Shown here: positions 9,596 to 13,509 of the stretch, piece after piece
How the letters are laid out: each line of letters opens with the position of its first letter
How positions within the stretch are numbered: position 1 is the stretch's first letter
Source of the DNA: Planctomycetota bacterium
Lineage (GTDB): Bacteria; Planctomycetota; B15-G4; JADJEK01
Reading direction: 5' to 3'
Assembly (NCBI GenBank): GCA_016213895.1
Contig: JACQZJ010000058.1
Span: forward strand, 1-46,564
Length of the DNA stretch: 46,564 bases
Notes under the pieces: model-generated
What the model was told of the DNA's origin: nothing
What the model saw: the letters and a program-made list of their open reading frames with translations, nothing else
Databases searched by the model: none
Made by a program: the position numbers and the translations under genes

Positions 9596-12041
9596 TCCCG
9601 GCCCCGCAGCGGGGCAGAATCTCCCGCGCCTCGGCAAGGCCATAGTTGAAGACGGTGAAGCCGCCGGTCTGGAAGCGGCGCGTGATCTGGATCTGCTCGA
9701 TGAGCGCAGAGATGTCCCCCCGCTCCGGCCACGTGCTCAGGCCGATGCCCGGATAGCACGGCACCGCCCCGGCCCAGCCGCGCTGCCGTTCGACCAGGGC
9801 CTCGAACTGGCCGGGATCCGGCGTGTAGTCCATGGGACAGACGAAGTCGAGGCAGCCCAGCTCGCACCACGCCTTCCAGTCCTGGCCGACGCCGTCGCGG
9901 TCGACCGGCCAGTTGGGGAATACGGCCGCCGAGACCTCCACCCCGGGCCGCCGCTCGTGCACGGCATCAGCCACGGCGGACACCACGCGCGTGATCTGGG
10001 CGCGCCGGAACTCCAGCCACTGAGCGTTGAGCGCGTCATCGCCCTGCACAACGGACGGCCAGCCGTCGACTCTGCGGCCGATGACCTGCTCGAACCGCCC
10101 GCGGCAGCCAGCGCAGAAGCAGCACTCGGGGCCGGGGTAGCGGATGTAGTCGAAGTGCACGCCGTCCACGGCGTACTTCGTGGCCACCTCGACCATGGCG
10201 TCGATCTCGAGCTGCTGATTCGCCGGGTGGGACGGACAGAGCCATTGCTCCTCTGACGTTCCATCGAAGCGCACCTGCGTGCGTCCCTCCCGGACCATGC
10301 GCTCGGCGAACTCCCGGGGCGCGCGGCCGCCCATGTTCCAGTTGACCTTCCAGACGTGGCACTCGACGCCGTGCGCGCGGCAGGCGGCCAGGCAGGCGGC
10401 GATCTGATCGCCCCGCTCCCGCACCTCGGGCGCGACCGGCAGCACGTCGCTCTCGTAGTACGCGACGCCGCCCCAGAGCATGTTGGGCAGGATCGCGGTG
10501 AAGCCGTTGGCAGCCAGGATCCCTATCGCTTCCTCCCACTCCAGGCCCGAGACGCCGAACGCATCGTGGCACCAGAAGGCGCGGTGTTCGCCGGGCTGGG
10601 GCTGTTGCACCTCGCAGAACAGGTCGATCAGTGCCGCGCTGACCCCTTCCGCCGAGGAGATCGCCAGGGCCACGTCCGTGCCCTCGGCCGCCCTGTCTCG
10701 GGCCTCCGCGAGCATGGCCTCGATCTCCTCGAGGCGCGCGAGCGCGCGGCCCTCGCCGCCGGCCAGCTTCCGGATGGCCGCGCTCGCCTCCTCGAATCCG
10801 GTGAAGGGAGCGATCGCGCCGGCGCTCGCCAGCGCGTGCGCCAGAGCCGTCTGCCGCAGGGACGGCGCCAGGTGACCGAGCATGGCCAGGACCAGCAGGC
10901 GGCGCGCGGCCGGATCGTCCACCAAAAGGACGTGCGTCATGAACACGCAGTTCGCGGAGGCGACGATCGCCGCCTGGCGCGCGCTCTGGCCCGCGGCGTC
11001 GAGCCACTCGGCGGCGACCTCGCTCTTCCCCTCGATCGCCCGCGCCTCGCGGATGTTCCATGAGCTCTGGCGGACCGTGTCCGGCATGCCCTCGAGCACG
11101 TTGCCGCAGGCGCAGAGCGCGGCGAACTGGCCCTCGCGCTCCTCCCGGACGTGCCGGCCGATCTCGATGCCAGCGACCTCCGAGAGCGGTTCCGGGAGGG
11201 TGTAGAAGGCGAGGATCTTGCCGCCCGCGGCAACGAACTCGCGCAGGCCCTCGACGGCCTCGGCCGGCATGGCCGGGTCGTACGGCAGGACCGCCACCAG
11301 CTTGCCCTGGAGCCGCTCCGCCGTCACGTCGAGATCGTCCATGAGGACGGCGGTCAGGCCGAGATCCGCGAGAACGCGGCCCACGGTCTCCGCGCAGGAG
11401 GTGATCGTCCTCGCCTCGCCCGGGTGGCTCCGCGCGGCCGAGGCGCCCCGGATCAACACGATCGGCGCGTCCTGCCCCAGGAGAGCGAGATCGGCCAGAT
11501 AGAACGCCGTGTCCGTGTCGCCGCCACGCCAGGCGGAAACGCGGATAGCGTCGATCTTGCCGAAGCCGGCAGGCGTCCCCTCGATCGCCGTCTCGCTCTT
11601 GTCGATTTCGACGGTCGACCAGCCGCCCTTGGCGCGCGGCGAGAAGCGCGCCGCGTACCAGCCGGAGCCGCTCCGGAAGTACAACGAGAAGCCCGACACC
11701 GGCGACACGTCACGAGAGAAGAAGCGGAACTGCACGCCCCGGCAGGCCACCAGGTCAAAATCGATGGACAGGTCCCAGGACGCGCGTTCGATGCGCGTGC
11801 CGGAGAAGTTGCACGGCAGCTTCAGGACGCGGCGCTTCCCCAGCGGCACGCACGTGACCGGCGCGGTGCCGCAGATCGGCGTCCACGCTGCTCGCGCGCC
11901 CTGCTCGCTCGGGTAGTCGAGGTCATCCAGGATGACGGCGCCCGGCACGGGGCGAAGCGGCGGGATCTCCTCGGCCGGGCACGGCATCGCGAGGCAGGAA
12001 GCAATCGCCAGAGCCAGCGGCAGAAGAAGGCGTCCGGCCAT
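9582..12041 (-). CDS. Secreted GHL10 (YngK/DUF187-like) glycoside-hydrolase-like protein with an N-terminal accessory domain
   Basis: Signal peptide 'MAGRLLLPLALAIASCLA'. The C-terminal half matches the GH10-like TIM-barrel family: 'VDGVHFDYIRYP', a CFCAGC insertion, and 'LDFVCPMDYT'. Its start ATG overlaps the hgcB stop (TGATG). Confidence 0.75.
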   Translation of the reverse strand: MAGRLLLPLALAIASCLAMPCPAEEIPPLRPVPGAVILDDLDYPSEQGARAAWTPICGTAPVTCVPLGKRRVLKLPCNFSGTRIERASWDLSIDFDLVACRGVQFRFFSRDVSPVSGFSLYFRSGSGWYAARFSPRAKGGWSTVEIDKSETAIEGTPAGFGKIDAIRVSAWRGGDTDTAFYLADLALLGQDAPIVLIRGASAARSHPGEARTITSCAETVGRVLADLGLTAVLMDDLDVTAERLQGKLVAVLPYDPAMPAEAVEGLREFVAAGGKILAFYTLPEPLSEVAGIEIGRHVREEREGQFAALCACGNVLEGMPDTVRQSSWNIREARAIEGKSEVAAEWLDAAGQSARQAAIVASANCVFMTHVLLVDDPAARRLLVLAMLGHLAPSLRQTALAHALASAGAIAPFTGFEEASAAIRKLAGGEGRALARLEEIEAMLAEARDRAAEGTDVALAISSAEGVSAALIDLFCEVQQPQPGEHRAFWCHDAFGVSGLEWEEAIGILAANGFTAILPNMLWGGVAYYESDVLPVAPEVRERGDQIAACLAACRAHGVECHVWKVNWNMGGRAPREFAERMVREGRTQVRFDGTSEEQWLCPSHPANQQLEIDAMVEVATKYAVDGVHFDYIRYPGPECCFCAGCRGRFEQVIGRRVDGWPSVVQGDDALNAQWLEFRRAQITRVVSAVADAVHERRPGVEVSAAVFPNWPVDRDGVGQDWKAWCELGCLDFVCPMDYTPDPGQFEALVERQRGWAGAVPCYPGIGLSTWPERGDISALIEQIQITRRFQTGGFTVFNYGLAEAREILPRCGAGITRP

Positions 12042-12358
12042 CACGGCCCGTGATCTTCCGGGGAGCAGCAGGGACCGAGCGCGGAGCAATCGCAGGTCGG
12101 CTCGGTTCCGCGCCAGGCGCCGATGAGGATGCCGATGGCGCAGCCGACGCCGGAGCGGACGGTCAGCGCCCCCTCGGGGCAGTTCCTGGCGCAGGCGCCG
12201 CACTCCATGCAGGCGTCTCGGTCGACGATGCGCGCTCGCTTCTCCCGGAGGTCGAACACGCCGTGCGGGCACACCTCGACGCACATGCGGCAGCCGTTGC
12301 ACTTCTCCTCGCGAAGCTCCAGCGTGACGACGTCCTGCAAGTAGCGCAGTCCCAACAT
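12041..12358 (-). CDS. hgcB: HgcB, the ferredoxin partner of the mercury-methylation corrinoid protein
   Basis: Length 105 aa. Two CxxCxxCxxxCP [4Fe-4S] motifs (CNGCRMCVEVCPHG and CMECGACARNCPEG), a conserved 'GVGCA', and a C-terminal CC pair. The N-terminal 'RYLQDVVTL' matches characterised HgcB. It lies 17 bp downstream of hgcA. Confidence 0.85.
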   Translation of the reverse strand: MLGLRYLQDVVTLELREEKCNGCRMCVEVCPHGVFDLREKRARIVDRDACMECGACARNCPEGALTVRSGVGCAIGILIGAWRGTEPTCDCSALGPCCSPEDHGP

Positions 12359-12375
12359 GGCCCGTCCTCCGCGCC

Positions 12376-13509
12376 TCACGCGAATCGCCCGTACACCAGC
12401 AGGAACAGCCCGATCGCCGCGGCCGCGACCTGAGCTGGCACAGCCCACCGCATCTCGCGGCGCACGCCGGAGAGCGAGGTGAAGGTCGAGGCGCCGGTGA
12501 AGTTCATGGCCAGGAAACTCGCCACGGCCGGGAGCAGGAACGCCCACGCCGCGGCTTCCATCAGGTTGTCGAACAGCCCAGCGCCGGCCCACTGGAGCGC
12601 CGCCGCGACGAGCAAGAGCGCGAGCCCGACCCACGCGCCCTTGAGCGAGAACGCCCGGCCGGGAATCCAGGGCAGGAGGATCGGTGTCAGCGCGGCGCCG
12701 CCCAGGTATGCCGCGGAGAGCAGCAGGGCGCCGCGAACTCCCGGTCCACGCATGCGCTCCATGGCGTAGCCGTCGGGGCCAAGGCCGGAGAGCAGCAGCA
12801 GGCCGGCGGCCACGCAGAGGAAGAGCCGGAGGAACCCGGTCAGCTCCACCGGCACGAGCACGAGCCGGTCGAGGAGCGAGAAGCGTACGCGTCGCGCCTC
12901 CGGCGGCACGCGCATGCCGTCGCGCAGGCAGGCGGGCAGGTCGGCCGCGCGCACCGGGCCGTAGCGCACCCGGAAGCCACTCCGCTCGCGCACGAGATGC
13001 GCGCTCACGCCGGTCGCGCCGAGCTGCGGCACGATCAGGTCGCGATGCGAGACCACTTCGCCGAGGCGCACCGCCTCGATCCTCTGCACCAGTTCCTCGG
13101 TGCCAAACGTCCCCTTGCCCGCCGCGCACCAGACGTTGATGCCCCTGGTGTCGAGCACCAGGAGCCAGGCGTCCACTCCCGCAAGGCGCGAGCGCAGGCG
13201 ATCGAAGGTGAGCTTGTAGTTGGCGGTCACGAGCACGGGAGACGCCGGGGTCGGGTCGCCCGCGGCGTAGAGACCGGGATCTACCCGGTAGTTCATCCGG
13301 CCGATGGCCCAGCGCACGCGCCACCCACCCAGGCGGTCGCGCGCGGTGAGCGTCGTGGAGACAAGAGGCGCCTCGCCGGCCGCCGTGGTGATCGTCCCCA
13401 CGGACCAGTCCGCGGCAGGCTTTGGCGATCCGCCGCCGTCGCCCCCTGACGGGCCGCAGCAGCAGCACGCCGCGCGCTTGCCCGTCGCTGCGCCATCCAC
13501 CTCAGTCAT
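12376..13509 (-). CDS. hgcA: HgcA, the corrinoid (cobalamin-binding) mercury-methylation protein
   Basis: Cap-helix signature 'GINVWCAAGKGTFGT' with the conserved Cys. Surrounding blocks 'SPVLVTANYKLTFD', 'DAWLLVLDTRG' and 'YGPVRAADLP' match HgcA rather than CFeSP AcsC/AcsD. The C-terminal half has about 5 predicted TM helices. The N-terminal start is uncertain; the first ATG (13509) overlaps the upstream gene's stop. Confidence 0.9.
   Translation of the reverse strand: MTEVDGAATGKRAACCCCGPSGGDGGGSPKPAADWSVGTITTAAGEAPLVSTTLTARDRLGGWRVRWAIGRMNYRVDPGLYAAGDPTPASPVLVTANYKLTFDRLRSRLAGVDAWLLVLDTRGINVWCAAGKGTFGTEELVQRIEAVRLGEVVSHRDLIVPQLGATGVSAHLVRERSGFRVRYGPVRAADLPACLRDGMRVPPEARRVRFSLLDRLVLVPVELTGFLRLFLCVAAGLLLLSGLGPDGYAMERMRGPGVRGALLLSAAYLGGAALTPILLPWIPGRAFSLKGAWVGLALLLVAAALQWAGAGLFDNLMEAAAWAFLLPAVASFLAMNFTGASTFTSLSGVRREMRWAVPAQVAAAAIGLFLLVYGRFA

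Follow-up and report, generated by a model that had tools for sequence, protein, structure and literature searches.

We conclude that a contig of 46,564 bp from a metagenome-assembled genome (MAG) of an uncultured Planctomycetota bacterium (JACQZJ010000058.1, analysed over its whole length and referred to here as the window) very probably carries a genuine and intact two-protein HgcAB mercury-methylation system. The hgcA gene (12376..13509, minus strand) is an open reading frame (ORF) of 377 amino acids, and hgcB (12041..12358, minus strand) is a separate gene directly downstream with its own ribosome-binding site, encoding a ferredoxin of 105 amino acids that has two [4Fe-4S] motifs, then Cys73, and four more cysteines in its tail. 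The spacer between the two is 17 bp long (12359..12375) and carries the ribosome-binding site, GGAGGA; hgcB adjoins hgcA in 79 of 81 related loci. An initial annotation of this stretch had proposed the pair, and its 377 and 105 amino acid ORFs, their coordinates and the 17 bp gap were all exact; the strand, which it did not name, is the minus strand. It had also described the source organism as a candidate methylmercury producer, and we consider this to be the right strength of claim. Both proteins pass curated HgcA and HgcB models, and mercury methylation by this bacterium is a prediction made by analogy with characterized orthologs.

The family assignment was examined with NF040863 and NF040864, which are NCBI curated equivalog models with set bit-score cutoffs. 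NF040863 (HgcA_corrinoid) gave 438.4 bits on the larger ORF against a cutoff of 275, with HgcA residues 49–376 aligned to positions 3–324 of the 325 in the profile, and NF040864 (HgcB_ferredoxin) gave 124.7 bits on the smaller against a cutoff of 99, with the profile covered in full (1–93 of 93). Because the family E-values were 1.5e-131 for HgcA and 1e-36 for HgcB, a chance match is excluded. The NF043039 model of HgcAB-like fusions scored 194.8 bits on HgcA and 61.2 bits on HgcB, in both cases below its cutoff of 285, and the acetyl-CoA decarbonylase/synthase gamma model PRK04165 (NF003195) reached 74.5 bits on HgcA against a cutoff of 306, matching at profile positions 322–445 only. The initial HgcA call therefore held when checked with hidden Markov models, in that NF040863 was passed and both the AcsC/AcsD-type gamma model and the fusion model were failed.

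The cap-helix motif NVWCAAGK (13114..13137, minus strand; HgcA residues 125–132) lies within the peptide DTRGINVWCAAGKGTFGT (residues 120–137), the context in which N(V/I)WCA(A/G)GK had first been recognized. Its cysteine, Cys128, which is predicted to serve as the lower axial ligand of cobalt, is present here and invariant in an alignment of 47 sequences from the closest homologs, as are N125, V126, W127, A130, G131, G133 and T134. The strict motif was found in 114 of the 120 closest HgcA homologs. For the equivalent residue of ND132, Cys93, the role has been established by mutagenesis and spectroscopy (PMC7305189; PMC11588087). The C-terminal part of the protein, residues 212–377 (12379..12876, minus strand), forms a membrane domain of five helices. 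A Kyte–Doolittle scan returned five segments (215–245, 260–280, 286–314, 316–337 and 354–374), and an alignment-based AlphaFold2 model (mean predicted local distance difference test score (pLDDT) of 83.3, predicted template modelling score of 0.76) placed helices at 219–240, 250–277, 287–307, 316–339 and 346–376, so that the proposal of about five C-terminal transmembrane helices was borne out by both approaches. When HgcA was compared with the PDB by Foldseek, the top match was the published computational HgcAB model 9a0b_A (E 5.5e-21, 46% identity, 328 columns), whereas corrinoid iron–sulfur protein (CFeSP) chains gave E-values from 5.8e-8 to 3.9e-6 in alignments of just 124–156 columns.

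HgcB contains the two ferredoxin-type CxxCxxCxxxCP motifs with which it had originally been credited, CNGCRMCVEVCP (C20/23/26/30, P31) and CMECGACARNCP (C50/53/56/60, P61), and beyond the clusters has C73, some 12 residues past the second motif, and the C-terminal cysteines also noted at that stage, the tail holding four of them, C89, C91, C97 and C98. In an alignment of the window protein with 76 others from hgcA-adjacent loci that had a complete C-terminus, each of C20/23/26/30/50/53/56/60/73 was kept in all 77 sequences, and most of these had three to five additional tail cysteines. Cooper et al. assigned cluster A of ND132 HgcB to cysteines 20/23/26/60 and cluster B to 50/53/56/30, and reported that a C73A variant was inactive and that full activity requires at least one C-terminal cysteine (PMC7305189). 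The deposited GenBank form of HgcB is 104 amino acids in length; when read from the ATG at 12358 (12355–12358, minus strand), in front of which GGAGGA is found, the protein has 105 amino acids, and this longer form has also been recorded from Logan assemblies.

A further feature of HgcA, absent from the initial annotation, is a run of four cysteines at residues 15–18, within the motif CCCCGP (13450..13467, minus strand; residues 15–20) of the tail AACCCCGPS (residues 13–21), which is disordered in the AlphaFold2 model (pLDDT below 50). A CC doublet is present in the N-terminal tail of 78 of the 114 closest homologs that have the strict cap-helix motif, and at four deltaproteobacterial loci (L010, L020, L050 and L056) a cysteine is followed by an in-frame TGA at the equivalent position. 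Haft & Gwadz described an N-terminal extension of HgcA with a PCUGP cysteine–selenocysteine motif in ND132 and Geobacter, with CC in occasional homologs and extra cysteines 'packed' into the same region. Taken together, the doublets, the Cys-TGA loci and this description lead us to read CCCCGP, from its sequence and position, as the published PCUGP motif in an all-cysteine form and thus as a feature that is already known.

How the pair might work can be proposed from the ND132 system. Zheng et al. characterized purified ND132 HgcAB as a cobalamin protein that associates with the membrane and contains two [4Fe-4S] clusters, in which S-adenosylmethionine, and not methyltetrahydrofolate, is the methyl donor to Co(I), and in which methyl-Co(III), with the thiolate of the conserved cysteine as ligand, then passes its methyl group to thiol-bound Hg(II) (PMC11588087). 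Every residue implicated in this mechanism for ND132 HgcAB is present in the window proteins. By analogy with the ND132 orthologs, the HgcB clusters would hand low-potential electrons to the cobalamin of HgcA to generate Co(I), which S-adenosylmethionine would methylate to methyl-Co(III), stabilized by the Cys128 thiolate as lower axial ligand. Thiols would hold the Hg(II), probably including those of the HgcB tail cysteines and perhaps those of the HgcA N-terminal cysteines too, and the methyl group would move to Hg(II) as a radical or carbanion with release of CH3Hg+. In this lineage the pair appears to be transcribed with an orphan gene upstream and a GHL10-like gene downstream (both described below) from a promoter-like element near 14400–14426.

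Both proteins were already public. The HgcA sequence of the window matches GenBank MBI4879471.1 exactly, a record that bears the name 'acetyl-CoA synthase subunit gamma', and HgcB corresponds to MBI4879470.1, which is named '4Fe-4S binding protein'. With a threshold of E ≤ 1e-10, HgcA has at least 7,996 homologs; among the matches listed, the closest (P0002, GCA_020723465.1) is 78% identical and the others no more than 67%. PurD of the window is 93% identical to its nearest match, a GenBank protein that we take to stem from the same sibling genome, and otherwise at most 72% identical; the named matches are Planctomycetota, those at or below 72% carrying no finer label than 'Planctomycetota bacterium'. 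On both proteins, therefore, the lineage is distinct. The sibling locus (L081, on contig DYIW01000076.1 of GCA_020723465.1) shares a block of four genes that includes hgcAB, together with flanking AcrB and glycosyltransferase genes, at 84–91% nucleotide identity; its HgcA is 81% identical over aligned codons and its HgcB 84% over the full length. The sibling HgcA (L081 3181–4266) differs in having CCC where the window protein has CCCC, and in lacking 15 residues (GLGPDGYAMERMRGP, window residues 242–256) from the loop that joins the first membrane helix to the second, a stretch that is conserved in the family consensus. The sibling contig also has an additional gene of 568 amino acids after the GHL10-like gene, has other DNA upstream of the promoter-like element and lacks the tRNA-Arg gene found there in the window. 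Ratios of non-synonymous to synonymous substitution (dN/dS) between the two genomes were 0.36 for hgcA, 0.21 for hgcB, 0.38 for the GHL10-like gene and 0.51 for the orphan gene. The values are consistent with functional genes, and those of hgcA and hgcB lie well below 1 and indicate purifying selection; an extreme bias in G+C at third codon positions may depress dS.

The deposited names raise the question of whether the larger ORF is instead an acetyl-CoA synthase gamma subunit, the large subunit of the CFeSP of the Wood–Ljungdahl pathway, with an ordinary ferredoxin beside it. Besides the two names themselves, this is favoured by the fact that CdhD is the sole Pfam match (HgcA residues 74–166) and that a PDB sequence search returned CFeSP large subunits as the only solved relatives (residues 75–194; 2h9a at E 1.5e-10). 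We nevertheless consider it next to impossible. The corrinoid-binding domain is homologous to that of the CFeSP large subunit (AcsC/CdhE; 2h9a, 2ycl, 4djd) over some 120–155 residues, but the homology is limited to HgcA residues 74–197 and the gamma-subunit score falls far short of its cutoff; the window protein has neither the N-terminal [4Fe-4S] part nor the TIM barrel of the 440 amino acid subunit, and carries five membrane helices instead. CFeSP has no such membrane domain, and Cys128 aligns with a threonine in 2h9a, in keeping with the report of Cooper et al. that the cap-helix cysteine is absent from CFeSP (PMC7305189). Nor does the window contain other Wood–Ljungdahl genes. The AcsC/CdhE identity is thus refuted by the model scores and by domain architecture, 377 amino acids with a membrane domain against approximately 440–450.

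Two further readings accept the relationship with HgcAB and question what the proteins do. The pair could be an HgcAB-like paralog that does not methylate, or else a copy in decay and inactive, and tests of some hgcA-like genes, fused forms for example, have shown no methylation. The sub-threshold match of 194.8 bits to the HgcAB-like fusion model points the same way, as does the 15-residue deletion in the sibling HgcA, which indicates that the lineage tolerates change in the loop between helices 1 and 2. The fusions do have corrinoid-binding, membrane and ferredoxin modules in common with the window pair; they are, however, single polypeptides, whereas here there are two separate intact ORFs with a 17 bp spacer, and the larger scores below 285 with the fusion model while lying far above the cutoff of the HgcA model. 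With all of the residues known to matter from mutagenesis in place (the HgcA Cys93 equivalent, HgcB Cys73 and the C-terminal cysteines) and dN/dS well below 1, we regard a paralog or a decaying copy as very improbable. A less remote alternative, although still an unlikely one, is that the proteins are true HgcAB orthologs for which mercury methylation is a side reaction, their native role being another corrinoid reaction such as reductive halomethane dehalogenation or some other methyl transfer. In a 2026 preprint, HgcAB expressed in a heterologous host is reported to dechlorinate CCl4, and halomethanes are argued to have been the ancestral substrates; according to the literature hgcAB confers no resistance to mercury; and in the window hgcAB lies amid cell-envelope and carbohydrate genes, with no mercury-related genes. 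The preprint is not peer reviewed, however, and the neighbouring genes are lineage-specific and therefore say little about function. As this proposal concerns the native role and not the identity of the proteins, it is compatible with our assignment of the locus to a genuine HgcAB system.

Several observations weigh against that assignment or against the prediction of methylation drawn from it. Residues 127–133 of the cap helix are of low confidence in the AlphaFold2 model, which the absence of the cofactor may explain. When 82 HgcA sequences were joined in a neighbour-joining tree, the window and sibling proteins fell beside one from Latescibacterota, near those of Planctomycetota, Zixibacteria and Poribacteria; the placement beside Latescibacterota is tentative since the tree carries no support values, and it is well known that HgcA trees are incongruent with species trees (PMC7438021). 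We found no mercury-methylation assay on a Planctomycetota isolate in the literature, no genes for cobalamin, mercury or methyl supply were present among those of the window, and debate continues over what HgcAB natively acts on.

Of the characterized systems, the locus can be compared with DND132_1056/1057 of Pseudodesulfovibrio mercurii (Desulfovibrio desulfuricans) ND132, which has the same two-gene layout. The HgcA proteins share the corrinoid-binding domain, the cap-helix cysteine and five membrane helices, the 9a0b_A model matched above at 46% over 328 columns being based on ND132, and the HgcB proteins have cysteines at identical numbers (20, 23, 26, 30, 50, 53, 56, 60 and 73) as well as C-terminal cysteines. 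They differ in the HgcA tail, reported as PCUGP in ND132 (and also in Geobacter) against CCCC here, and in the HgcB tail, which has two cysteines in ND132 against four (CDC...CC) in the window. The ND132 locus has other neighbour genes and its host is a sulfate reducer, in contrast to a Planctomycetota bacterium with a G+C content of 70.6% across the window. The locus belongs to the HgcAB family as an ordinary and intact member, and its lineage has no close relatives in culture. What is new is this one further family member and the correction of outdated database names; the HgcAB family, its motifs, its occurrence in Planctomycetota and the N-terminal cysteine motif have all been described already, and the understanding of mercury methylation is unchanged. 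There are repeated reports, from MAGs as well as metagenomes, of Planctomycetota that carry hgcA (PMC7438021; PMC10469668), and the window pair is one of thousands known, planctomycete pairs included. It does extend the range of candidate methylmercury producers by another uncultured lineage of Planctomycetota and, because the names in GenBank are outdated, keyword-based surveys would miss both proteins.

The hgcAB pair lies within a block of four head-to-tail genes on the minus strand, in the order 283 amino acid orphan, hgcA, hgcB and an 819 amino acid GHL10-like gene, with junctions of ATGA (−4 nt), +17 bp and TGATG (−1 nt). From this layout, the four genes appear to be co-transcribed in one lineage-specific operon. 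The orphan gene (13506..14357, minus strand), the stop codon of which overlaps the hgcA start in ATGA, encodes a protein distantly similar to DUF932 and phrog_1362 (phrog_1362 at E 1.7e-6; DUF932 at E 0.0086, a weak similarity below the cutoff). Only three other homologs were found among 5.8 billion proteins, and these conserve the motifs RVYRxVCxNG and WGLVNAxTAxAR; an AlphaFold2 model (pLDDT 43.6) was too poor for a fold search. GenBank has the orphan as a 262 amino acid hypothetical protein, HY812_07400. We place its start at 14357, giving 283 amino acids, because the N-terminus MHCRLGRI is conserved and a ribosome-binding site precedes it; this site is also conserved in the sibling contig. 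The GHL10-like gene (9582..12041, minus strand) has an ATG that overlaps the hgcB stop in TGATG and matches Pfam GHL10 (PF02638) at E 1.5e-18. Residues 1–23 of its product are hydrophobic and signal-peptide-like, and the N-terminus, MAGRLLLPLALAIASC, resembles a lipoprotein signal peptide with a putative IASC lipobox.

The idea of a conserved third gene beside hgcAB was rejected, as neither the orphan nor the GHL10 gene was present at 80 other hgcA loci. Elsewhere, the GHL10-like gene adjoins hgcAB only at the sibling locus, and the one other orphan homolog on a long contig (L082) is in an unrelated context away from hgcAB. Judged by gene order, the orphan and GHL10 genes are best regarded as lineage-specific neighbours and not as general hgcAB partners, in an arrangement common to one sibling genome only. 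In front of the block is a promoter-like element, TTGACA-17 nt-GTGAAT (14398..14426, minus strand), for which the sibling has TTGACA-17-GTCAAT. This may act as the promoter of the four genes; it is found where the syntenic block reaches its limit, near 14449, and a scan for consensus promoters did not flag the site.

One possibility considered for the origin of the locus is that hgcAB is cargo of an old and fully ameliorated mobile element. Were this the case, the locus would preserve a rare physical sign of how hgcAB passes from phylum to phylum. In support of it, hgcA is translationally coupled to a DUF932/phrog_1362-like gene, from a family that is typically found in phages and conjugative elements, and the synteny with the sibling contig breaks near 14449, in the interval separating the promoter-like element from a tRNA-Arg(CCG) gene (14581..14657, minus strand), some 150–230 bp from the hgcAB block and with a promoter-like site of its own upstream (14697–14669). 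However, no attachment-site repeat of the 3′ end of this tRNA gene was found beyond those expected by chance or in other tRNAs, no integrase was present among the scanned ORFs of the window, and there was no shift in composition across the hgcAB block, where G+C is flat at 0.70–0.73 and uniform with the flanks. For these reasons we consider a mobile origin improbable. McDaniel et al. reported that they could find no hgcA near insertion sequences or transposases, nor on NCBI viral contigs. The only transposase in the window is a possibly truncated IS110-family copy (1794–2711, minus strand) approximately 9.3 kb from hgcB, with DEDD_Tnp_IS110 and Transposase_20 domains, the second of which extends to profile position 44 of 87.

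None of the ORFs in 226–2046, on the left side of the window, matched Pfam, and an Rfam search of the window returned tRNAs only, with no cobalamin riboswitch. Upstream of the tRNA-Arg(CCG) gene are genes for a 598 amino acid protein with no family matches (14694–16490, minus strand) and a 1,249 amino acid FG-GAP-repeat protein (16497–20246, minus strand), counterparts of which were not found in the 14.3 kb stretch of the sibling contig that was examined. Further tRNA genes are tRNA-Arg(TCT) (27371–27447, plus strand) and a His(GTG)-Arg(TCG)-Lys(CTT) cluster (30632–31069, plus strand) with spacers of approximately 105 bp. The five tRNA genes of the window, together with ftsY, purD, galK and ispH, fit an ordinary chromosomal region.

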